Shown here one piece after another: positions 1,497 through 41,896 of a DNA stretch of 64,000 nucleotides (position 1 is the stretch's first letter; every line of letters starts with the position of its first letter). Under the pieces are notes generated by a model, which did no database searches, had not been told where the DNA came from, and was given only the letters and a program-made list of their open reading frames with translations. The DNA lies in assembly GCA_017993335.1 (NCBI GenBank), contig JAGOMX010000001.1:4863-68862 (forward strand), given 5' to 3'. Source of the DNA: Alphaproteobacteria bacterium (lineage in GTDB: Bacteria > Pseudomonadota > Alphaproteobacteria > JAGOMX01). Both the position numbers and the translations under genes were made by a program.

Positions 1497-1952
1497 CCTG
1501 ACTTCTGCCATTTAGTGTAATAAATAATTCAGCCACAAAAACCGAAGAAGAAATTCAGAACGTAAGGAATGTTTTGTTCTTTCGTTTGTATTCGGGGGGC
1601 TATACCCTAAACCCGAATCTAAATCCATTAAGGGGAAAAAGCTATGGGAACAGGTTTTTGGACGTTACCTTGTGACTGGTTTCTGTGATATAGGGGTAGC
1701 CTGAATTTCCGCTGCTCGGGTGCGCCAGAAAACCCTGGTTTAGAAACAATTTTTCTAACTGCCACTCTGGTGAAACGATCTACAGTCACGAAGAAGCAAA
1801 CAAAGAGTGAGTGCGTGATCGTCTGATTAATAATAAATTAAGTGAAAAACAAGTGAAGAAATACTTGACTTATCGAAATAATATAAATATATAGTAAATT
1901 GAGTCCACACTACAGTGGCTTATTGTTATTTATTCATATTGGAGTATTAGTT

Positions 1953-2789
1953 ATGAACATTAAAAAGTTTACTGCAAAATCCCTAACCTTATGTGCTTCC
2001 TTATTATTAGCAGGAAACATATCTTCCTCAGTCGCAAGTGATTCTATTGATGAGGTAAACAGAATACCTCCTAGTGTTGCCTTTATGAAGCAACAAGCCC
2101 TAGCAAAGCAAGAAGTCCTTCTAACAAAGATCCATTCGTGGGGTGAAAGTGCAGACCCTGCATCTTGCTTGCTCGATTTTCAAGAACAACTCAAAGAATT
2201 AGTAAATATTCATACAAAGCTTGGGCCAATGCTAAATGAAATACAGATGGAGGCTTTTGTAGATGAAATTAATTCAATCAAACCTTGGAATGGATTTGAG
2301 GGTACATTTGATTTCGATAAACTAGACAGAAACATTAAAGCTATGATTGTTAGCTGGATGGACCCAAAAACTCTACTAAGCTTTTCTCTCACATGTAGAC
2401 AAGCATACGAACAGTTTGAAAAAGCAGCTATTCCTTCGCAAATATTTGCTGTAAGAGCTGTTGACGAGAAATTCAACTCTTTAATCCACCAGTTAATCAC
2501 TGTTGGTAAAACATTGTCAACCAGGGGTATGTTTACATATAATATGTCAAATGGCGCCGCCCCTAACTCCAGCTCACTCATATTAAATACATCCTACAAT
2601 ATGGCTACATTTGAGCTATTTCTTGAAAAAGAGGTACTTAATATGAAAGAAAGAAAGAAAGCATATCTGATGGCCATCGAACTATATCCTCAAATTAGAA
2701 TAGCATTAAATCTCATAAAAGAGAGTGGCTCCAGAGAATCTTCTTATTGGAATTCATATTTTAACTGTTTAGGTACGTCTAACACCTAA
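1953..2789 (+). CDS. hypothetical secreted protein (N-terminal signal peptide)
   Basis: ATG at 1953 preceded by GGAG at 1941. N-terminus MNIKKFTAKSLTLCASLLLAGNISSSVASD is signal-peptide-like. No recognisable domain. The ORF-track start at 1899 is probably too far upstream. Confidence 0.55.
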   Translation: MNIKKFTAKSLTLCASLLLAGNISSSVASDSIDEVNRIPPSVAFMKQQALAKQEVLLTKIHSWGESADPASCLLDFQEQLKELVNIHTKLGPMLNEIQMEAFVDEINSIKPWNGFEGTFDFDKLDRNIKAMIVSWMDPKTLLSFSLTCRQAYEQFEKAAIPSQIFAVRAVDEKFNSLIHQLITVGKTLSTRGMFTYNMSNGAAPNSSSLILNTSYNMATFELFLEKEVLNMKERKKAYLMAIELYPQIRIALNLIKESGSRESSYWNSYFNCLGTSNT

Positions 2790-2847: not shown

Positions 2848-2929
2848 AGATGCTTCATGTGCATGCAATAGGAGCTCCCCAAATGCGAAAAATTCCTAAA
2901 TCATGAGTTTTTAGAATTAGGAGTAAGAT

Positions 2930-4420
2930 CTAACTAAACAGGTCCCCCAGTGTGATTTCGTTGGTTACCAGAGCGGCTGAGTAATCATTGACATTTAAGC
3001 CTTCGGGGGTGATTAACGTCACATAAATTGGCTTATTGGTCTTGCTGTGTGCCTGATACAGGGAGATTTTGCGTTGGATTTCTTCAGTAATCTTCCTAGT
3101 GAGAGTGAATTTCCCCTGATGAAACTTCATTTCGCATAAATTTATAAGTCCATCCGCTCGGTCAATGAGTAAGTCAATTTGACATCCCTCAGCGCCCTCT
3201 CCACCTTTCTCTTTTTTGGGAATCTCTCGCCAACTGCCGATTTCACTCGAAATAACGGAGATGCCCAGAGCGCTCTTAATCTGTTCAATGTGCTTGAGAC
3301 ATACAGATTCAAAGGCATATCCTGACCAACTTCTCCAGGACTGGGATTGCATTTTACTTTCCCAATAGGATTCATTTTTTAGGGTTGAGGAAAGCCGTTT
3401 AGCCACGGGTTCTATCCATCTTAAATAAAATAGAACATATTCGTCGATTACTCGAAAGAAGGTCCCCTTGTTCAGATTCCCATAGGGCGTGAAACTTAAA
3501 ATAAACCCAGCTTCCTCTAGTTCACCCAGTCGTTTTTTAAACATGCCACCGGAAGAGGAAAGGGAGGCTGCTTTTAAAATCTCATCTCTGGAGATTCCCT
3601 GGCGTGCACGTGAAATTATTCGAATTAGCTCGTTATGAGCTTCAGAAGAATCAAAAAGGGATGAGAATAGCGTTTCAAATTCTTGAAAAAGAAACCCGTC
3701 TTTCTGAAAACACAACCTGTTTAAGCTTTGAGCAACGGAGAATCCAGGAAGGATACCATTCAGGTAATGGGGAATTCCTCCGATGGCCATATAAAGCTCC
3801 ACGACTTGGCGCTTATTGTATTTAACGCCTTTATGTACCAAGTAATCTTGCGCCTCTTTGAGAGTAAAGGGCCTCAACGGCATTATGGCCGTCAATCGAT
3901 TATGCAGCCCTCCTTTGGCGTGAATGAGTGTGTCAATCATCCAAGAGGCTGCCGATCCACAGACAATTAATTTCAGAAATGGCAGGGTTGACCATCTTGT
4001 ATTCCAGTAATAATCAAGAGCCTGGATAAATCCTGACTTCGGCGTTGAAAACCATGGGATCTCGTCTATGAAAATGATGAACTTTTTGGATGATTTCGCT
4101 TCCGAAGCCGTTTTTTCAACAGCCTTCGTTAATAATTTAAAGGCATCCAACCAGGTGTGAGGAGTCTGTAGAGGCGTTCCTTCATAAAAAACCTCAGATA
4201 TCCGCTCTGTGAATAACATAAGTTGCTGGGGAAAACTTCCATCTTTCAGGCCCGTTGCTTCAAAATAGACACATTCCTGCCGCATAAAAAAATTACGGAC
4301 GAGAAAGGTTTTTCCCACACGGCGCCGCCCATAAACAGCAACAAACTCAGCCGAAGGACTCTTAAAAAGCCGCTTTAGGGTAGCTTGTTCTTCCCTTCTG
4401 CCAATGATTAAATCTGTCAT
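2930..4420 (-). CDS. AAA+ ATPase of the Arch_ATPase (PF01637) / DUF234 family
   Basis: 496 aa. N-terminus IIGRREEQATLKRLF...EFVAVYGRRRVGKTFLV is the hallmark start and Walker A of the ATPase_2/DUF234 family. A Walker B-like FIIFIDEIPW follows. Confidence 0.8.
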   Translation of the reverse strand: MTDLIIGRREEQATLKRLFKSPSAEFVAVYGRRRVGKTFLVRNFFMRQECVYFEATGLKDGSFPQQLMLFTERISEVFYEGTPLQTPHTWLDAFKLLTKAVEKTASEAKSSKKFIIFIDEIPWFSTPKSGFIQALDYYWNTRWSTLPFLKLIVCGSAASWMIDTLIHAKGGLHNRLTAIMPLRPFTLKEAQDYLVHKGVKYNKRQVVELYMAIGGIPHYLNGILPGFSVAQSLNRLCFQKDGFLFQEFETLFSSLFDSSEAHNELIRIISRARQGISRDEILKAASLSSSGGMFKKRLGELEEAGFILSFTPYGNLNKGTFFRVIDEYVLFYLRWIEPVAKRLSSTLKNESYWESKMQSQSWRSWSGYAFESVCLKHIEQIKSALGISVISSEIGSWREIPKKEKGGEGAEGCQIDLLIDRADGLINLCEMKFHQGKFTLTRKITEEIQRKISLYQAHSKTNKPIYVTLITPEGLNVNDYSAALVTNEITLGDLFS

Positions 4421-4448
4421 GCCAAGAACTTTCCGCTAGATATGGGGG

Positions 4449-4506
4449 AATCATACTCAGCGAAATCATGTTTGTAAAGATGGATTTCGCTGAGTATGAT
4501 TTTTTT
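4449..4506 (+). terminator. strong hairpin (19-bp perfect stem) followed by T7 run; orphan terminator-like structure
   Basis: aatcatactcagcgaaatc ... gatttcgctgagtatgatt followed by ttttttt. No + strand gene lies upstream. Sits in the origin-proximal intergenic region. Confidence 0.4.
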
Positions 4507-4582
4507 GGTGGCAGAATTGATTTTATTGGGTCTCAAAAACTATTCTACTAAAACTTCAAAAAAGGGCACAAGTCAGGAAATT

Positions 4583-4625
4583 AAGTTAGCTCTTTTACAA
4601 ACCGAGTGGGTAAGCTGGATTTTCA
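4583..4625. repeat. 43-bp direct repeat copy 2
   Basis: Matches 1454..1496 with one mismatch (t/g). Confidence 0.7.
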
Positions 4626-4704
4626 GTGAGTATTTATGGCTATAAAGTGTGGGAATCTTCCTATGCTAAAACATATTTGTACTTTATAGCCATAAATACT
4701 CACT
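4625..4704. repeat. perfect 24-bp inverted repeat pair separated by 32 bp
   Basis: agtgagtatttatggctataaagt (4625..4648) and actttatagccataaatactcact (4681..4704). Immediately abuts direct-repeat copy 2. Confidence 0.7.
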
Positions 4705-4719
4705 TTTATATAAACCAAA

Positions 4720-5095
4720 TATGCTCCTGTGGATAACTGGCTTAAGAAAATGTATAACTGACCGCCTTGAACTTATTTTCCCTTATTCATATTTTTACCC
4801 CTCTCTTTTCGATAGGTTATCCACAACTTTTAACATGTGGATAAAAGATGAATCATTTTTTTTATGCGTAAAATATAAATTATTTATACACAACCCATTT
4901 GTTTCCGAAACTGGCTTTTAAATTGCTTTTTAGGGGATTTCTTAATGAATTAATTGATTTATCTACAGCTGTGGATAAAATTGTGATTATTCAAATAGAC
5001 TTGCTCTGCCCTTGTGAATTAGCTATATCAACAGGTACTACTACTATAACTATCTTTTTATATATATATAATAATAGATATAAGGCTTGGGATAA
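4720..5095. other. candidate chromosomal replication origin (oriC/Cori) with four DnaA boxes
   Basis: Perfect TTATCCACA/TGTGGATAA boxes at 4728..4736, 4817..4825, 4836..4844 and 4970..4978. AT-rich tract tatatatatataataatagatat at ~5058..5080. Lies immediately upstream of hemE, the conserved alphaproteobacterial origin linkage. Confidence 0.55.
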
Positions 5096-6130
5096 ATGTC
5101 TGACCAACCGATTTTAAGAGTTTTAAATGGCGAGAGATTAAAAAAACCTCCGTGTTGGTTTATGCGTCAAGCTGGAAGATACTTACCTGAGTATCGAAAA
5201 ACACGTAGCCAGTTTAAATATTTTAAGGATTTCCTTTTTTCAACTCCGGATATTGTTGATGTAACTTTACAACCGTTAAGACGTTTTGATTTAGATGCGG
5301 CTATAATCTTTTCCGATATCCTCGTCGTTCCAATGATTTTAGGTGAAGATGTGGATGTTGTAGAAAGCAAAGGACCTCAACTTTCCAAAATTAATACACC
5401 TGAAGACATTCAGAGACTTTTCTTAAAAGGACATTTTGAAAAGTGTTTACCTATTTATGAAGCGATAAACAAAGTACGATCTCAATTGGAAAAAAATAAG
5501 TCTCTCATCGGCTTTGCTGGCGGCCCATGGACAGTAGCATCTTATATGATCGAAGGGCAAACTAGCAAAACCTTTGCGAAAACAAAAAATTTCGGGTACC
5601 AGTGGCCAGAAGCCTTCCAGAATTTATTAAATATAATCAGTGATATAACAGCAGATCATTTAATCAATCAGATAGATGCAGGTGCAGATCTCATCAAGAT
5701 TTTTGATAGCTGGGCAGGATCTATACCCTATAACCGACAAAATGAATGGCTCGTACAACCTCATAAAAGGCTCGTGGAGCGTGTAAATCTCTCTAAACCA
5801 CACATCCCTATCATTTCTTTTAATAAGGGCTTAGAAACCTCTTATAACACTTATATAGAAAATGTACCCGTTAAAGGTGTGGCAATGGGATCTCCAACGA
5901 ATATAGAATGGGCAGCAAAGAATATTTCTTCACATGTAGCCTTACAGGGTGCCATGGATCCACAATTATTAGTCGTTGGTGGAAAATCAATGATATGTGA
6001 TATTGAAAAGCACTTAATTACTTTTAAAGACAGACCTTATATTTTTAATTTAGGCCACGGTATCGTGCCGGAAACCCCCTTTGAAAATGTTAAAATAGCC
6101 TTAGATACAATAGATAGGATGTGTGCGTGA
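5096..6130 (+). CDS. hemE: uroporphyrinogen decarboxylase
   Basis: 344 aa. N-terminal PPCWFMRQAGRYLPEYR motif typical of HemE. Confidence 0.9.
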   Translation: MSDQPILRVLNGERLKKPPCWFMRQAGRYLPEYRKTRSQFKYFKDFLFSTPDIVDVTLQPLRRFDLDAAIIFSDILVVPMILGEDVDVVESKGPQLSKINTPEDIQRLFLKGHFEKCLPIYEAINKVRSQLEKNKSLIGFAGGPWTVASYMIEGQTSKTFAKTKNFGYQWPEAFQNLLNIISDITADHLINQIDAGADLIKIFDSWAGSIPYNRQNEWLVQPHKRLVERVNLSKPHIPIISFNKGLETSYNTYIENVPVKGVAMGSPTNIEWAAKNISSHVALQGAMDPQLLVVGGKSMICDIEKHLITFKDRPYIFNLGHGIVPETPFENVKIALDTIDRMCA

Positions 6131-8878: not shown

Positions 8879-8894
8879 TGTTTCACGTGAAACA
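8879..8894. promoter_or_regulatory. parS: parS centromere-like site (TGTTTCACGTGAAACA)
   Basis: Perfect 16-bp palindrome identical to the canonical ParB-binding parS consensus. Lies between the rho stop and the rsmG start, upstream of parAB. Confidence 0.75.
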
Positions 8895-9493: not shown

Positions 9494-10300
9494 GTGCGAT
9501 CCCAAATTATTGCTATCGCAAATCAAAAAGGTGGAGTTGGTAAGACAACAACAGCTATAAATGTAGCCACAACACTTGCTGCGGTCAGAAAAAAAACGTT
9601 ATTAATTGATTTAGATCCACAAGGCAATGCGACGACGGGTTTGGGATATAAAATAGATAACCATTCTATGGGTATTTATGATGTCTTGTCTGGCGATGCA
9701 CATATACAACAGGCTATCGTTGAATCACATATACCTCAGCTAAGTTTGATTCGTTCTTCTATGGATTTATCGGCATCAGAAATTGAGTTGGTATCTGCAA
9801 AAAAACGGGAATTTGTTTTGAAATCAGCGCTTTCCGAAATTATTGGTAGCTATGATTATGTGGTTATAGATTGTCCACCGGCATTGGGATTGTTAACAAT
9901 CAATGCCTTTGTTGCGGCACATAAAGTTCTTATCCCTTTACAGTGTGAATATTTTGCTCTTGAGGGGTTAAGTTCTTTGATTAAGACGATCAGGCGCATA
10001 AAACACGCTTTAAACCCGCCTCTGGATATTTTAGGCATATTATTAACGATGCATGATCGCCGGAGTGCCTTATGTCAGATGATAGAGGATGATGTGCGGA
10101 AAACCCTGGGCGATTTAGTTTTCGATACAGTTATTCCACGAAATGTTAAGGTAAGCGAAGCTCCTTCCCATGGCAAGCCTGTCTTGTTGTATGATATAGC
10201 CTGTAGCGGCTCGCAAGCTTATGTTAAAGTAACGGCAGAAATTCTGAAAAGGATGAAAAATGAATATGAAAATGGCTACGAAAAAAAGTCCGTTAGGTAA
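9494..10300 (+). CDS. parA: chromosome partitioning ATPase ParA
   Basis: GTG start with AGGAGA RBS. Deviant Walker A KGGVGKTTTAIN. ParA/Soj family. Confidence 0.9.
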   Translation: MRSQIIAIANQKGGVGKTTTAINVATTLAAVRKKTLLIDLDPQGNATTGLGYKIDNHSMGIYDVLSGDAHIQQAIVESHIPQLSLIRSSMDLSASEIELVSAKKREFVLKSALSEIIGSYDYVVIDCPPALGLLTINAFVAAHKVLIPLQCEYFALEGLSSLIKTIRRIKHALNPPLDILGILLTMHDRRSALCQMIEDDVRKTLGDLVFDTVIPRNVKVSEAPSHGKPVLLYDIACSGSQAYVKVTAEILKRMKNEYENGYEKKSVR

Positions 10301-11147
10301 AGGTTTATCTGCTCTTTTAGGGCCAGATTTTGAAGATAGCCATAACGATCGCCTGATGTATATTGATTCGGATTTGATTACCATTTCAAAATATCAACCG
10401 CGCACACATTTTGATGAAAAGCAAATAAATGAACTAGCGGCTTCTATCCGCGAGGTTGGAATTTTACAACCGTTGGTTGTGCGGAGCTCGGATCATGGTA
10501 GTTTTGAGTTAATCGCGGGTGAGCGTCGTTTAAGAGCTTCTATTGTCGCTGGATTAACGCAAGTGCCGGTAATTGTTAAAGAGTTTGATAATAAGCAAAG
10601 TTTTGAAGCCGCTTTAATTGAAAATATCCAAAGAACCGATCTTTCCCCCATAGAAGAAGCTTTAGGCTATCAGCAGTTCATAGAAGAATTTAATTATACT
10701 CAAGATCAATTAAGTGAATTTGTGGGTAAAAGCCGCAGTTATCTTGCGAACACACTGCGTCTGCTCAATTTGCCGGACAAAATTAAACGGTATGTACATG
10801 AAGGATTAATTACACCTGGCCATGCCAGGGCCTTGCTTACCGCAGAAAATGCTGATGAATTAGCCGAGGCCATACTCACAAAAAAACTAAATGTGAGACA
10901 GGCAGAGGCGTTATCCAGAAAAAAAATAACAACGACGACACGAAAAACAAAAATTGAAACGTGTGAGGATGAAGATATCCTCTCGCTGCAAAGTCAGTTA
11001 TCTAATATTTTACAGTCAGACGTTTCTATTTTGATTCAAGGACATAAAGGTCAAATCAAAATCGAATTCGAATCCTTGGAACAGTTAGATGAATTGATTA
11101 CAAAACTTTCTTGTATCTCTGATTACGAAAATAGAGAGAAGAAATAA
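10260..11147 (+). CDS. parB: chromosome partitioning protein ParB
   Basis: ParB N-terminal domain with GERRLRA motif and an HTH region. Overlaps the parA end. Confidence 0.9.
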   Translation: MNMKMATKKSPLGKGLSALLGPDFEDSHNDRLMYIDSDLITISKYQPRTHFDEKQINELAASIREVGILQPLVVRSSDHGSFELIAGERRLRASIVAGLTQVPVIVKEFDNKQSFEAALIENIQRTDLSPIEEALGYQQFIEEFNYTQDQLSEFVGKSRSYLANTLRLLNLPDKIKRYVHEGLITPGHARALLTAENADELAEAILTKKLNVRQAEALSRKKITTTTRKTKIETCEDEDILSLQSQLSNILQSDVSILIQGHKGQIKIEFESLEQLDELITKLSCISDYENREKK

Positions 11148-35386: not shown

Positions 35387-36565
35387 CTAACAAACTTCAA
35401 ACAAGCCAGCTGCGCCTTGTCCTCCACCGATGCACATGGTTGCCACCACATATTTAACACCTCTGCGTTTGCCTTCTATTAAGGCGTGACCAACGATACG
35501 AGAGCCTGTAACACCGTAAGGGTGGCCGACGGCAATAGACCCACCATTTACATTCAGAAGTTCATCCGGGATTCCTAGTTTATCGCGGCAATAGATGACT
35601 TGTACGGCAAAGGCTTCATTTAATTCCCATAAGCCGATATCTTTCATTTGCAGACCAGCATTTTTCAATAGCTTTGGTATAGCGAAAACAGGCCCTATGC
35701 CCATTTCATCGGGTTCACAACCAGCGACGGCAAAGCCCCGAAATATTCCTAAAGGCTCAATCCCTCTTTGTTCGGCAAGTTTTGAATTCATAATGACGCA
35801 GGCAGAAGAGCCATCAGAAAATTGGCTAGCATTTCCTGCAGAAATCACCCCACCAGGGATGGCCGGTTTAATCTTGGATACACCTTCTAATGTCGTATCT
35901 GCACGTACGCCTTCATCAGAAGATATGGTCACTTCTTTCATAAGGATTTCCCCGGTTTCTTTATCGGTGACCCCCATAATTGTGGTGACGGGAACGATTT
36001 CCGCATCAAATTTTCCCGCAGCTTGTGCGGCTGCCGTGCGGAGTTGGCTTCTGACGCCATACTCATCCATAACATCCCGTGAGATATTATAGCGTTTGGC
36101 CACTTGTTCGGCGGTTTGTAGCATGGTCCAATAGATCTCGGGCTTATGTTCACTTAAGTATGGATCCATAACCATATGGCGGTTTACCGTATTTTGTACG
36201 CATGAAATACTTTCGACGCCACCTGCAACCATTACGGGGACTTTTTCTGCTATGATTCTGCCGCTGGCAATGGCGATAGCTTGAAGACCTGAGGAACAAA
36301 AGCGATTGACGGTCATCCCGGCTGTGGTAATGGGAAGATTGGCACGTAAGGCAACTTGACGGGCTATGTTTTCTCCCGTAGAGCCTTCTGGATAGGCACA
36401 TCCCATAACCACATCATCTATTTCAGCAGGATCCACACCAGATCGCTTAACAGCCTCAGCGACGGCATAACTTCCAAGGGTTGCACCATAAGTCATATTA
36501 AAGGAACCCTTCCAGGATTTTCCTAATCCCGTACGGGCTGTTGAAACGATAACTGCATCTACCAT
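35387..36565 (-). CDS. acetyl-CoA C-acyltransferase / 3-ketoacyl-CoA thiolase
   Basis: 392 aa. Thiolase motifs [34 protein letters not shown]. Second thiolase paralog in the window. Confidence 0.9.
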
Positions 36566-36619: not shown

Positions 36620-39600
36620 TTATTTTTCCATCATATTTATAATGGCGTCCCAATTTTCTGGGATGCCTTCGCTGATGAGTTTCTGGCATCTGGTTACGAA
36701 AATATTGGCAACAGGATCTTCTTTACGAATGGCTATGCAGGCTTCAAAGATTTTTTTGGCCTTTGCAATGTCGCCTTTTGTATAAAGTGTAAGGGCTTTC
36801 TCAAAGGAATCAATGTAAGCATCATTCGTTTGTTTTTCCTCATAGGAAGTGGAGGGAAGAACTTCATAGATTGTCATCGCTTTCGTTTTACCTTTAACGC
36901 GTATTTTATCTATTTTTCGAATACTAAATCGGGATGCATCCATAAGTTTATCGTAAGTGGCATCGCTGATTAATAGTTGTGTACCATACATTTTGTTTAA
37001 TCCCTCAATACGGGAAGCGCCATTGACCATATCGCTGACGACGTTGGCTTCGATGCGTTCTTCTTCTCCCAGGGCACAAAGCATGGCTGGTCCTGTATTA
37101 ACGCCAACACCCATCAGGATGCTTGCAAATCCTGCATCGTTAATTTCTTGGTTAAATAAGGGTATAGCTTGTAGCATTTCTACCGCTGCTTGTACGGCAT
37201 CTTGGGATGGGCCGGGGAATAGGGCAAGAATACCATCGCCCAGAACACGATTAATAAATCCATTGTTTTGCCGAATGATAGGAGCCATGTATTTGAGGTA
37301 AGTATTGAGTATGTATGTTAGTTGCTCTGGCTCGATAGCTTCAGATATGGATGTAAAGTCTCGTAGATCTGCAAAAATCGCCGACATTTCAGATTTTGCG
37401 CTATCCCCTATTTGGACTTCTTCAATATTTTTTCTCCCTAAAAGCTGTAAGAACTTTTTCGGAACGAATCTCTCGGTAGCATGAAACAATTGTTGAGTAT
37501 GTTCTAGATAGCGTGCATTTTCCAGTGAAATGGCTATTTGAGTGGAAAGAGTCGAGAGAATTTGGACCCTGTCTGGAGTAAAGGCTTGTGTGGTTAGATT
37601 ATTCTCCAGGTATAAAATAGCCGTAACTTTTTTGTCGCGCAATATAGGAATGCATAGAGCGGATTTAGGTTTGTTTTTTTGTACGTACTCTAGTTTTGCA
37701 TATTTTTCATCGGCACTGATGTCTGAGATAACTTCGGGGCTGCCGGATCTTATGGTGTAGGTTATTAAACCTTCCGGCACAGAGGTGCTTTTTTGAAGAG
37801 GTTCGATAATCTGGCGTACATCGAATGTATCTTTATTCATTTCGGCAATTGTTTCTACCGTCCATACATCACGGCGAAGTCCAATAAAAATAGCTTTTTC
37901 GGCGCCTGCAGACTCGGTAACGACTTTTAATATTTTTGGCAGCAGCTTATCCAGTATGATTTCGCTGGAGATGGCCTGGTTGGCTTTTATCAACGACATT
38001 AAGTCTAATTCGCCCGTCATCATGGTGGTAGAAAAACCGACTGGTGTTCGAGGGGTATTCGAAAGTTTTTGTTTCTGCAGTAAAGTATGGCCATATTTTT
38101 CTTGAAGACGCTTAACTTTTAAATTGCATCCCCACTGTTCAAAAAAATAGATGGCTTCAGAGATGTAGTAGATGGCGGCCCCATGGTACCCCATTTCTAA
38201 ATTCATCTCGCCTAATCTTTCATTCGCTATCGCCGTCCATCGGGTATAAGCATTTTTCTGAGAGACCTGAATAGCGTTGTTATATAAATCAAAAGCTTCC
38301 AGAGTCTTTTTTTGAATACGCGCAAGTTCTGCTTGTCCAAGAAGATAAAGATGTAAAAAATTATCTGGATTGTGATCGGAGAATTTTTTCAGCAGAGAAA
38401 GATATTTATTAATTTCCTTTATAGACTCTGTTTTCTCCTCATCGGAGGCGCTTGGATACAATTGAGCCAAGATCATGATGGATAGCGCGTAATAAATTTG
38501 ATTGCCGATGGATGGATTGTTATAGGTCCTGCTCTGCATGGCCTGTTGAGCGGCATGTTTTGCGAGTTTAAATTCTTCCTCAAAATAATAATTAAATACG
38601 GAAAATAGCCCAAAATCATTTTGTGTCGCCGGAAGAGATTTGCTGACATCGTCTAATGAAAGAGTTTTTTCATCCAGCATGTGTTGTGCACAAATATAAA
38701 CATGCTGAGCCGCATCTATAATATTTTGCATGCGCAAACGATTGCCGATTCGGACATATTCGTTCGCCTTGTTTTTTAGATCTGCCAGTGGGAGATCGGA
38801 AAAGTTACAAAACTCTAAATTTGCATTTATAGACCAGGGAAGATAAGTAAAAGAACCTGTTTCGACCATAGTCTGAATACTTGGCTCAATATCTTGAATC
38901 ATATCCTTTATTTTAGAAAAATAAGCCGCTGTTCGCGTCGATCGGGAGGTGAAAAGAGCTTTTATGGATGCGGGAAAATGCCTGGTTTTTAAGACAGACA
39001 TGCCTCCTTGCCATATGGTCTCGTAACTTTTTAAACTTCCTGTCACCTGGTATTGAATGCGAGCTCTTGAATCTATTAATTGATAGAGAATGTTATCATC
39101 GACGCCATTCTTTTCAAAATAGACCGCGACTCGCATGGTTGCACAATTGGGGAATGTGATGTTACCTCTAAATATGGAGGCAGAGGCCCCTAAAAACAAG
39201 ATGTCCGCCAATACGGCTGTTCGTTCTATATCTGCAGGTTCATTGGTAATTCGCTTAAAAGAAAGAATTTTATTGACGAATGTGCTACCACTTTTGTATC
39301 TCAGGAAGTATTTCATAAACTCATAATAAAATTCTAACATGGATGGATTAAGGGAGATGTCGATGCCAATGATTTTTGTGCCCTTAACTTCCATGCTGAC
39401 AGTTTCTTGGTAATTGCCTAAAGCATTATTGATTTTCATTAAGGATCGATAAACATAGGCGCCTTGTAGGCCCCGTAGTTTTTTTTCTAACAATTTTTGC
39501 CCTTGAGTACGGGCATCTTGATAATCACCTTGTAGATATAAGCACTCTACATATTCTAAATTTAAATGAAAATGTAGTTTGTGGTTTTTATCCCAATCCA

Positions 39601-41896
39601 TATGAAGGAGCCAAAGCAAGCCAAGGGAAAGATAATCTTTCGCGGCTTGATAGGCGTTAGAACCGATAGCTTGCCGACCGGCACGCAAGGCTAACTCCGC
39701 CAGTTTTATTTTTTCTTCCTCATTATCAATAAGACCTTTGCATCGGTTAAAATGATCGAGGACTTCAAAGACATCTTCGCTGGAGCTAATTTCATCTATT
39801 TTGCTGAGTAGGAGTCTTCCGGCTTTTAAGTGGAGATACGTTTTTTCATTATCTGAAATTGTTTGATACGTCGCTTGTTGGATACGGTCGTGAATGAATT
39901 TATGTCTTAATCCTCCATCTATACGTTGGATGAGGCCTTCTTTTATGGCGGGAGATAGCTTATTAATTAAGTCTATCTCTTCAATTTTTTCTATATTACA
40001 TAAGGTCTCGCAATCGAAAGACATGCCCAAGCATGAACCTAGTTGTAAAGTTTTTTGGCTTTCGCTGGGGAGTTTATTTATTTTTTCCAACATCAGGTCG
40101 ATGACGTTGTTGGATCCGGCCATGAGTTGTATTTTTTCAAGATCCCACTCCCATGCTTTATTTTGCAGAGAAAACTTTATGTAATTCTGATGAAAGCATT
40201 CTTTCAGAAACTCTCTTGTAAAAAATGGGTTTCCGTCGGTTTTTTTATAGAGGACTTTTGCGAGGGGTTGGATTAATTTGGCATCGGCTTTAAAGGTATC
40301 TGTCAACAATCTTTCAGTATCTTTAAGGCCTAAAGCACCTAATTCGATATTTTCAATGTCCATCCCAGATTTTTTTAATTTCTCTAATAGCTTTATTAGA
40401 GGGTGGCTTTCATCCACTTCATTATTACGAAAAGCACCGATAAATAAAATGGCTTCTGCATCTTGTGTGCTTAAGATAATATCCAACAAGCGTAAGGAGC
40501 CCTGATCTATCCACTGCAAGTCGTCGATAAAAATGACTAAGGGTTCATCCCGATTGGCGATACAGCTTATAAACTTTTGAAAGAAAAATAAAAATCTATT
40601 TTGTGCTTGTTCTGGGGATAGTTTTTCTATTTCAGGTTGCTTGCCCAAGACCAGTTCAATTTCAGGAAAAAAATCAATCATGACTTGGCCAGAAGAGCCT
40701 AAGGCTAACAAAAGCCTATTCTTTCTCTCCTCAAGCCTTTCTTCTGATTCGGTCAGCCAGTTTTGAATTAATTTGGAAAAAGCAGTTGTAAACGCTGTAT
40801 AAGGCGTTGTGCGGAGTAATTGGTCAAATTTCCCACTAATATAATAACCATTTTCTTGAGTTATGGGTTTTTGTAATTCATTCACTAAGGTTGTTTTACC
40901 TATACCCGAGTACCCGCCTATCATGACACATTCTAGGTTGCCGTCTTTAACTCTATCAAAAGCGGACATGAGTTGTTTGACTTCATTCTCCCTGCCATAC
41001 ATTTCGGAGGAAATTGTTAGCTTGTTGAGTAATTCCCTGGAACCTAAATTAAAATCTTCAATTTTGTGATTATTTAGCCAGCCTTGATGACACAATTCTA
41101 AGTCATACAATAACCCTTCTGCACTTTGATATCGATCGTCTGCGGATTTAGCCATTAATTTGGCGACTATTTTTGATAACATCTGTGGTACCAAATTATA
41201 GGCTTTAGAAGCTGATTTTGGTTCTATCGCTAAATGAAAATGGACGTATTCAAGGGGGTCGTTACTGGTAAAGGGTAGGGACCCAGTTAGCATCTCATAA
41301 AATGTTATTCCTAGAGAATAATAATCGCTACGATAATCAATAGGCCGATTCATTCTCCCTGTTTGTTCAGGAGACATATAAGGCAAACTTCCTTCTAATT
41401 TTTGCACAGAAACAACTTCTTGATTTTCAACGGTTAGTTGGCTGGCAAGGCTTAAATCCAGGAGTTGAATGCCTAACGTGTTCGGGTGGATGAGCAAATT
41501 ATCAGGTTTGATGTCTTTATGAATAATGTTGTGAGCATGCAGCTGCGATAAACAATTTATTATATTCTTGGCAATCGTTAAAAAGAGATCTGGGGTCAGG
41601 GGTTTGCCGGATAAATATTTTTTTAAAGATATGCCGCCGGTATCCTCATAAATGAGGAAGTGTGAATCGGCTTCTTCTATTAATTTTTCGCAATGGACAA
41701 GGCCGGAAAATTTAATTTCATGATTGATTTGATATTCATGGCGAAAAGCTGTAAGCAAGGCCTGCGAAGGGCGTTTGGATTTAATCGCCTTTATAATGAC
41801 GTTTCCATAATCTACAGGACCATGAGCCTTGAAAACAACGATATCATTGTTCTCATAAAGAATCCCATTGTTTTTATAGCTTGCTAAACGGTCCAT
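36620..41896 (-). CDS. giant multidomain signalling protein: Ser/Thr kinase - AAA/STAND NTPase - TPR-like array - GAF - class III adenylate/guanylate cyclase
   Basis: 1758 aa. N-terminal Hanks kinase (VIIKAIK, HNIIHKDIKPDNLLI, SPE). Walker A GGYSGIGKTT near aa 325. Long helical repeat region. GAF-like region near aa 1250-1400. C-terminal cyclase with FADLRDFTSISE and a terminal TPR. Confidence 0.85.
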   Translation of the reverse strand: MDRLASYKNNGILYENNDIVVFKAHGPVDYGNVIIKAIKSKRPSQALLTAFRHEYQINHEIKFSGLVHCEKLIEEADSHFLIYEDTGGISLKKYLSGKPLTPDLFLTIAKNIINCLSQLHAHNIIHKDIKPDNLLIHPNTLGIQLLDLSLASQLTVENQEVVSVQKLEGSLPYMSPEQTGRMNRPIDYRSDYYSLGITFYEMLTGSLPFTSNDPLEYVHFHLAIEPKSASKAYNLVPQMLSKIVAKLMAKSADDRYQSAEGLLYDLELCHQGWLNNHKIEDFNLGSRELLNKLTISSEMYGRENEVKQLMSAFDRVKDGNLECVMIGGYSGIGKTTLVNELQKPITQENGYYISGKFDQLLRTTPYTAFTTAFSKLIQNWLTESEERLEERKNRLLLALGSSGQVMIDFFPEIELVLGKQPEIEKLSPEQAQNRFLFFFQKFISCIANRDEPLVIFIDDLQWIDQGSLRLLDIILSTQDAEAILFIGAFRNNEVDESHPLIKLLEKLKKSGMDIENIELGALGLKDTERLLTDTFKADAKLIQPLAKVLYKKTDGNPFFTREFLKECFHQNYIKFSLQNKAWEWDLEKIQLMAGSNNVIDLMLEKINKLPSESQKTLQLGSCLGMSFDCETLCNIEKIEEIDLINKLSPAIKEGLIQRIDGGLRHKFIHDRIQQATYQTISDNEKTYLHLKAGRLLLSKIDEISSSEDVFEVLDHFNRCKGLIDNEEEKIKLAELALRAGRQAIGSNAYQAAKDYLSLGLLWLLHMDWDKNHKLHFHLNLEYVECLYLQGDYQDARTQGQKLLEKKLRGLQGAYVYRSLMKINNALGNYQETVSMEVKGTKIIGIDISLNPSMLEFYYEFMKYFLRYKSGSTFVNKILSFKRITNEPADIERTAVLADILFLGASASIFRGNITFPNCATMRVAVYFEKNGVDDNILYQLIDSRARIQYQVTGSLKSYETIWQGGMSVLKTRHFPASIKALFTSRSTRTAAYFSKIKDMIQDIEPSIQTMVETGSFTYLPWSINANLEFCNFSDLPLADLKNKANEYVRIGNRLRMQNIIDAAQHVYICAQHMLDEKTLSLDDVSKSLPATQNDFGLFSVFNYYFEEEFKLAKHAAQQAMQSRTYNNPSIGNQIYYALSIMILAQLYPSASDEEKTESIKEINKYLSLLKKFSDHNPDNFLHLYLLGQAELARIQKKTLEAFDLYNNAIQVSQKNAYTRWTAIANERLGEMNLEMGYHGAAIYYISEAIYFFEQWGCNLKVKRLQEKYGHTLLQKQKLSNTPRTPVGFSTTMMTGELDLMSLIKANQAISSEIILDKLLPKILKVVTESAGAEKAIFIGLRRDVWTVETIAEMNKDTFDVRQIIEPLQKSTSVPEGLITYTIRSGSPEVISDISADEKYAKLEYVQKNKPKSALCIPILRDKKVTAILYLENNLTTQAFTPDRVQILSTLSTQIAISLENARYLEHTQQLFHATERFVPKKFLQLLGRKNIEEVQIGDSAKSEMSAIFADLRDFTSISEAIEPEQLTYILNTYLKYMAPIIRQNNGFINRVLGDGILALFPGPSQDAVQAAVEMLQAIPLFNQEINDAGFASILMGVGVNTGPAMLCALGEEERIEANVVSDMVNGASRIEGLNKMYGTQLLISDATYDKLMDASRFSIRKIDKIRVKGKTKAMTIYEVLPSTSYEEKQTNDAYIDSFEKALTLYTKGDIAKAKKIFEACIAIRKEDPVANIFVTRCQKLISEGIPENWDAIINMMEK

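Follow-up and report, generated by a model that had tools for sequence, protein, structure and literature searches.

A probable DnaA-dependent chromosomal replication origin abutting hemE in an uncultured alphaproteobacterium

Analysis of a 64-kb stretch of DNA from an uncultured alphaproteobacterium, hereafter called the window, led us to place with high confidence a DnaA-dependent chromosomal oriC at ~4715-5095, where it abuts hemE. This segment is very probably a clear and well-conserved case of a known kind of origin, the hemE-linked alphaproteobacterial oriC, and not a new type. The initial annotation had already read the region as an origin, and that reading is supported by a cluster of DnaA boxes, by an unstable AT-rich tract, by the proximity of parS and parAB, and by conservation in eight other species. 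The origin is unusually legible for alphaproteobacteria, with nine boxes at conserved spacing and a box/trio/AT-rich module in the 5' region of hemE, and the unwinding module of this hemE-linked origin appears to be of a recognisable type, the basal unwinding system (BUS) of box, spacer, trios and AT-rich tract. A hemE-linked origin of this kind does not overturn current understanding. It does set an origin coordinate for an uncultured alphaproteobacterial lineage, which can be used for genome orientation, for metagenomic peak-to-trough estimates of growth rate and for vector design.

Nine DnaA boxes lie upstream of hemE

The intergenic spacer at 4421-5095 (675 bp) parts a leftward AAA-ATPase ORF (2930-4420) from hemE and has a GC content of 0.32, compared with 0.41 for the window. 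Four perfect copies of the DnaA box TTATCCACA were found in the whole 64-kb window when both strands were counted, and all of them lie in a 251-bp stretch inside this spacer. They start at 4728, 4817, 4836 and 4970, exactly as the initial annotation had listed them, and each was confirmed with zero mismatches. Box A (4728-4736, minus strand; the plus strand reads TGTGGATAA) has 0-1 mismatch in all nine species compared (see below). Box B (4817-4825, plus strand) is perfect in six of the nine species and has 1-2 mismatches in the others, and it is faced over a 10-bp gap by box C (4836-4844, minus strand). Box F (4970-4978, minus strand) is perfect in seven of the nine.

Five weaker sites accompany these four. 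Box D (4884-4892, plus strand; TTATACACA) has one mismatch in the window and 0-3 across the species, being perfect in L015. Box E (4959-4967, plus strand; TTATCTACA) likewise has one mismatch, is perfect in L007, and forms with box F the palindrome TTATCTACA-GC-TGTGGATAA. The DnaA-box-like site X (4749-4757, minus strand; AATGTATAA) is weak, with three mismatches; X shares the orientation of box A, 21 bp away, its core TGTATAA is conserved, and it has 1-3 mismatches in eight of the nine species, with just one in L007. Box X is probably a low-affinity DnaA site. Boxes G (5013-5021, minus strand; TGTGAATTA) and H (5025-5033, plus strand; ATATCAACA) have two mismatches each, and box H points toward the unwinding element. 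In box G, TGTGRA is invariant in all nine species, and L016 has TGTGGAAAC at this site; box H is replaced in L007, L015 and L016 by ATATCCACA, TTATCAACA and TTTTCCACA, respectively, each with a single mismatch. Since the distant relatives vary both sites toward the consensus, the DnaA-box reading of G and H is favoured.

Two other readings of short segments in this region were considered. The stretch 5001-5029 (CTTGCTC...GCTATATC) could be taken for a Caulobacter-type hemE promoter; the box G/H reading was preferred, with a promoter still conceivable, because the substitutions in L016, L015 and L007 bring these positions closer to a DnaA box, not to a -10 element. A box-like TTATCCCAA at 5087-5095 (minus strand) was rejected as a DnaA box, as it aligns with GGGA/AGGA located 6-8 nt before the ATG, that is, with the hemE ribosome-binding site.

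An AT-rich spacer, with the low GC content given above, might be expected to produce DnaA boxes as a chance or compositional artefact. The chance level was estimated from 100 dinucleotide-preserving shuffles of the 64-kb window, which contained on average 0.60 perfect boxes; none of the 100 reached four. When one mismatch was allowed, six of the 33 boxes in the window fell in the 675-bp spacer, which makes up 1% of the length. In addition, the individual bases of the boxes have been kept from species to species, in contrast to the diverged spacer around them. The shuffle result and the cross-species conservation together refute the artefact explanation, to which we assign a negligible probability.

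Box H, a trio array and an AT-rich tract form an oriented module

On the top strand, box H is followed by GG TA CTA CTA CTA TAA CTA TCT and then by TTTTTATATATATATAATAATAGATATAA. This stretch contains a DnaA-trio-like array at 5035-5052 on the minus strand (top strand GTA CTA CTA CTA TAA CTA), the bottom strand of which reads 3'-CAT GAT GAT GAT ATT GAT-5'. Its (CTA)3 has a single occurrence in the window on either strand, and the triplet frame of the CTA run relative to box H is kept in seven of the nine species despite a displacement of 3-6 nt. The array is followed by a candidate AT-rich DNA unwinding element (DUE) at 5053-5083 (TCTTTTTATATATATATAATAATAGATATAA). By nearest-neighbour energy, the least stable duplexes of the whole window are found at 5054-5083 for 30 bp, at 5044-5083 for 40 bp and at 5024-5083 for 60 bp, with z values of about 4.2-4.4. 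The strongly AT-rich tract that had been noticed just upstream of hemE is thus real, both in base composition and as the least stable duplex. The trio and AT-rich block together show a majority conservation of 0.79 across the nine species, compared with 0.55 for the remaining intergenic columns.

The search rules for BUS (Pelliciari et al. 2021) were used to test the box H/trio module. The rules allow up to two mismatches in a box that reads 5'-TTATCCACA-3' toward the trios, and box H has two. They allow a spacer of 0-16 bp, and here it measures 1 nt (G) before CAT, or 4 nt (GGTA) if counted to the first GAT. They call for at least three NAN trios in a row on the bottom strand, and 3'-CAT GAT GAT GAT-5' provides four, three of which are perfect GAT. 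The DnaA-trio consensus is 3'-GAT-5', and the orientation of box H agrees with the box-to-trio orientation given in the published BUS tables (Pelliciari et al. 2021). The generic BUS pattern is unspecific, with 97 matches in the window that have at least three NAN trios, and the middle-A rule is broken by the fourth and later triplets, which are ATT here and CAA in the relatives. A tandem second box, which is present in 57% of predicted BUS and is optional in the definition (Pelliciari et al. 2021), is absent upstream of box H, where the partner box G (TGTGAATTA) is inverted. BUS scores are otherwise weak in alphaproteobacteria, as in the entry for Rickettsia prowazekii, which has three trios and a score of 6; the module found here is textbook-like.

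The box plan is conserved across related species

Relatives were reached through a lookup of hemE homologues, the contigs of which were then compared, and through a scan for the origin core TGTGAATTRGNTATATCMACAGGT. The comparison set consisted of the window and eight species (L004, L005, L007, L009, L013, L014, L015 and L016), with hemE 47-73% identical; L011 is a duplicate of L005. The origin-core scan yielded one named genome, the MAG Alphaproteobacteria bacterium JTS-AC329 (L009), plus three metagenome contigs. A scan of genome contigs for peptide patterns of hemE brought up no close relative, and the window's own hemE was present in just two Logan assemblies. L010 and L012 were dropped as origin relatives, their core match being probably due to chance in unrelated DNA with a large palindrome and low coding density. 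In L012, at about 2900-3130, the 24-nt core match lies beside a nearly perfect inverted repeat, each arm of which measures about 70 nt.

The spacer upstream of hemE measures 400-710 bp in every species. It is AT-rich relative to its own locus in eight of the nine spacers and marginally so in L016, and in all species it holds about half or more of the boxes with at most one mismatch found at the locus. Measured from the hemE ATG, the box offsets in the window are 368(-), 279(+), 260(-), 212(+), 137(+) and 126(-). In L013, L004, L009, L005 and L014 the offsets depart from these by 1-5 bp at most and the distances from box to box by 1-2 bp at most, and order and orientation are the same; L007, L015 and L016 follow the same box plan with more substitutions. 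In the nine-species alignment, box columns are conserved at 0.90, compared with 0.55 for the remaining columns of the spacer. The left neighbour gene varies among the loci, being an ATPase, a thiolase, mfd, VIT1, a lactamase-like gene, a gene for a hypothetical protein or a histidine kinase gene, while hemE stays linked. These results indicate that the conserved unit is the origin together with hemE. The variable left neighbour matches the boundary-gene rearrangements described for Wolbachia and its relatives.

The gene neighbourhood fits a chromosomal origin

The right boundary gene, hemE (5096-6130, plus strand), encodes uroporphyrinogen decarboxylase (TIGR01464, E=6e-107). Its start at 5096 lies 12 bp past the DUE, which is directly followed by the ribosome-binding site GGGA (about 5090-5093). 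Rightward, the order is hemE, hemH, hemJ, rho, parS, rsmG, parA and parB. The order proposed in the initial annotation holds apart from hemJ, located between hemH and rho, which had been left out. The parS site, a single perfect palindrome (TGTTTCACGTGAAACA, 8879-8894), separates rho from rsmG at a distance of 3.8 kb from the DUE, and it also directly follows rho in L004, L005, L009, L013 and L016. The chromosome partition genes parA and parB occupy 9494-11147 on the plus strand. In alphaproteobacteria, mnmE and mnmG usually sit between rho and rsmG; both are absent from the rho-rsmG cluster here. As had been stated from the start, dnaA lies outside the window: no match to the DnaA family was found among ORFs of at least 150 aa in the 64 kb, nor any DnaA Walker-A or signature motif in the six-frame translation of the window. 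The parallel drawn earlier with Caulobacter and Rickettsia also bears out, since the hemE-linked position agrees with the mapped Cori and with the predicted origins of Rickettsia and Wolbachia.

A cluster of DnaA boxes with its own parABS could also be the origin of a secondary replicon, either a chromid or a megaplasmid. The closeness of parA, parB and parS would fit such a replicon, and several replicons are frequent in Alphaproteobacteria. On the other hand, the genes next to the cluster are core housekeeping genes in the conserved chromosomal order hemE, hemH, hemJ, rho and rsmG with parAB of the chromosomal type, a search of the 64 kb turned up neither repABC nor a plasmid initiator gene, and the same arrangement occurs in nine species on contigs of up to 160 kb. 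We therefore consider a secondary replicon highly improbable and retain the chromosomal oriC.

Cumulative GC skew reaches its window minimum at 4434 and rises from there to the right end, with only 4.4 kb covered leftward. The skew is negative on the left and positive on the right in all four loci with long flanks, over about 10 kb per side and confounded with gene strand. Pooled 1-kb bins from nine loci gave left and right averages of -0.042 and +0.066, respectively, with p about 1e-10 for bins that are not independent because the genes of the right flank are all on the plus strand and are homologous across loci. The switch in the window is seen only locally, because the left flank measures 4.4 kb, of which 3.1 kb is a recent insertion. 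As local evidence only, the GC skew agrees with an origin at hemE. Gene orientation is clearly biased over ~11 kb to the right of the origin and is mixed beyond about 20 kb, and for this reason the bias was not counted as evidence.

A consensus scan found a sigma-70-like promoter match, TTGATT-16-TAAAAT, at 4954-4981 on the plus strand, directed toward hemE. Boxes E and F fall between its hexamers, which the aligned species have roughly in common. Overall, promoter-like matches are no more numerous in the origin region than in shuffles. We infer that 4954-4981 may be a hemE-directed promoter inside the origin.

This arrangement bears on a further explanation, in which the cluster controls hemE as a promoter or operator that is regulated by DnaA, or titrates or reactivates DnaA in the manner of datA or DARS, and replication starts elsewhere, for example near dnaA, a frequent place for an origin. 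The position of boxes E and F in the sigma-70-like match fits a DnaA-regulated promoter, the most conserved block (5000-5083) falls where the promoter and 5'UTR of hemE would be expected, and the location of dnaA outside the window makes a dnaA-linked origin possible. However, nine spacing-fixed boxes with an oriented box/trio/AT-rich module exceed what a promoter needs, and the local skew minimum, the proximity of parS-parAB and the hemE linkage of mapped and predicted alphaproteobacterial origins all point to oriC. Furthermore, promoter activity and origin function are compatible, as the hemE promoter of Caulobacter is itself part of the origin. A regulatory or titration locus with replication starting elsewhere is thus unlikely, and an origin that may contain a hemE promoter is the reading that we prefer.

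A recent insertion and hairpins mark the left edge

A 49-nt direct repeat with 47 of 49 positions identical, found at 1448-1496 and 4577-4625, brackets the segment 1497-4576. Inside this 3.1-kb segment lie an ORF with an F-box domain (1899-2789, plus strand) and the AAA ATPase_2/DUF234 ORF (2930-4420, minus strand). A thiolase gene is located directly left of the origin in L005, L009, L013 and the 64-kb JGI contig of P0005, and because of this arrangement in the relatives the segment is read as a recent insertion beside the origin. The window contains two paralogues of thiolase (acetyl-CoA acetyltransferase), at 161-1342 and 35387-36565, and the one at 161-1342 represents the ancestral left neighbour of the origin. 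Two independent public assemblies from Logan break at 4596-4619 owing to the 49-nt repeat. Farther to the right, a 1758-aa ORF (36620-41896) combines Ser/Thr kinase, AAA_16, GAF and adenylate/guanylate cyclase domains; together with the F-box ORF, such eukaryote-like and signalling proteins hint at a host- or protist-associated lifestyle.

Directly right of the repeat and 24 nt left of box A is a long perfect hairpin or cruciform (4625-4704) with a 24-bp stem and a 32-nt loop. Hairpins occur at the same place in L009 (2846-2944) and L005 (9433-9558). When the hairpins of the window, L009 and L005 were compared by eye, the outer stem was found to be conserved in both relatives (GTGAGTATTT / AAATACTCAC), and the inner stems were different yet complementary. 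In L004 and L013 the hairpin is absent or present only as degenerate remnants. In 3500-6000, Rfam yielded nothing at E<=1, and its only hits across the window were two tRNAs, indicating that these hairpins belong to no RNA family described so far. The hairpin at 4625-4704 has neither a clear promoter nor a clear terminator. Whether it belongs to the origin is uncertain; possible identities are a cruciform, a MITE-like element or an origin-linked small RNA. A more far-reaching proposal, that the origin of this clade is hemE-linked, does without Caulobacter-style CtrA/IHF control, has consensus boxes at rigid spacing and a Bacillus-type module, and includes a functional hairpin at 4625-4704, is one that we regard as doubtful. 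If it were true, the hairpin could be, for instance, an origin-encoded small RNA comparable to CcnA of Caulobacter, or a cruciform boundary element.

A second perfect hairpin, with a 19-bp stem and a 15-nt loop, is found at 4449-4501, inside the inserted segment and before the ATPase gene. One arm and the loop of this hairpin are 76% identical to the loop of the hairpin at 4625-4704, and promoter-like hexamers are arranged symmetrically on its two strands.

Proposed course of initiation

What we observed is the anatomy of the sequence, and the steps of the following scheme are modelled on known origins. DnaA would bind at A, B, C and F, the four boxes that match the consensus. Cooperative binding of ATP-DnaA would then fill the weaker sites, namely X, D, E, G and H, aided by the spacing that is fixed across species. 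DnaA bound to box H, which is nearest to the DUE and points inward, could nucleate a filament on the bottom-strand trios at 5035-5046 (3'-CAT GAT GAT GAT-5'), and this filament would stretch and melt the AT-rich tract 5053-5083, which has box H on one side and the hemE ribosome-binding site on the other. The helicase would be loaded at this tract. Transcription toward hemE from a promoter around boxes E and F may assist initiation, be coupled to it or be regulated by DnaA, in line with what is reported for the hemE promoter of Cori. Finally, ParB bound to parS, 3.8 kb away, would segregate the newly copied origins.

Comparison with known origins

In common with E. coli oriC, the origin described here uses consensus TTATCCACA boxes and mixes strong and weak sites at fixed spacing. 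Its terminal box is oriented toward the DUE in the manner of R1, and neither origin adjoins dnaA. Unlike E. coli oriC, it contains no GATC, no 13-mer repeats and no IHF consensus. GATC is found zero times in the 675-bp spacer, compared with 3.8 per kb in the window, so that E. coli-style control by Dam and SeqA is not applicable; the density of GANTC in the origin is average.

The putative unwinding module is best compared with the BUS of B. subtilis (box 6/7), listed as 3'-AATAGGTGT TTAGGTGT CCGG GATGATAAT...AAAAAATAT-5'. The two share a 5'-box, a short G/C spacer, (CTA)n and an A/T-rich 3' end in the same orientation. On the trio strand, B. subtilis has 3'-...CCGG GAT GAT AAT GAA GAT GAT AAAAAA-5', and 3'-GAT-5' repeats are also present here, as they are on the trio strand of the C. 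difficile example 5'-CACCTACTACTATTACTACTATGA-3'. In contrast to the B. subtilis BUS, the proximal box here is weak, with two mismatches, the upstream partner G is inverted and not tandem, and only 3-4 consecutive consensus trios precede a non-NAN triplet. In addition, the origin here does not adjoin dnaA.

The experimentally mapped hemE-linked origin of alphaproteobacteria is Cori of Caulobacter crescentus. Both origins are located directly upstream of hemE with dnaA not adjoining, both have DnaA boxes beside an AT-rich region on the hemE side (~40 bp in Cori), and both have a parS-parAB region nearby; a hemE-directed promoter lies inside Cori and probably inside the origin described here. 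The boxes of Cori are moderate (two G-boxes) or weak (five W-boxes), whereas four consensus-perfect and five weaker boxes are present here. The left neighbour is DUF299/COG1806 in Cori; here it is the AAA ATPase_2/DUF234 ORF, and it is variable in the relatives. Cori also has five CtrA sites of the form TTAA-N7-TTAA and an IHF site, whereas no full CtrA site was found in 4421-5095 and the IHF consensus WATCAANNNNTTR was absent from both strands of the spacer. Two CtrA-like sites with one mismatch occur in 4421-5095, and the only conserved one is that at 4830 (TTAACATGTGGATAA; TTAA-N7-ATAA), which overlaps box C; its TTAA, 3 nt left of box C, is present in six of the nine species. This overlap recalls that of CtrA and the G2-box in Cori and is only a lead. 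Lacking recognisable sites for either CtrA or IHF, this origin could be used as a reference when asking how hemE-linked origins came under the control of CtrA.

In the predicted origins of Rickettsia, Wolbachia, Ehrlichia and Anaplasma, hemE is one of the boundary genes, and the COG1806/DUF299 boundary is accepted as having been lost by rearrangement in several lineages (Brassinga 2002; Ioannidis 2007). Among the features by which Cori-type origins are recognised in these studies, the hemE boundary and the raised AT content are present here, and COG1806/DUF299, CtrA and IHF are not. With these predicted origins, the one described here shares the hemE boundary, a rearranged boundary on the other side and an AT-rich spacer of 400-700 bp that contains DnaA boxes. 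The predictions comprise 2-4 boxes together with CtrA and IHF sites; here the CtrA and IHF consensus sequences are absent, whereas the box cluster and the trio array are much clearer.
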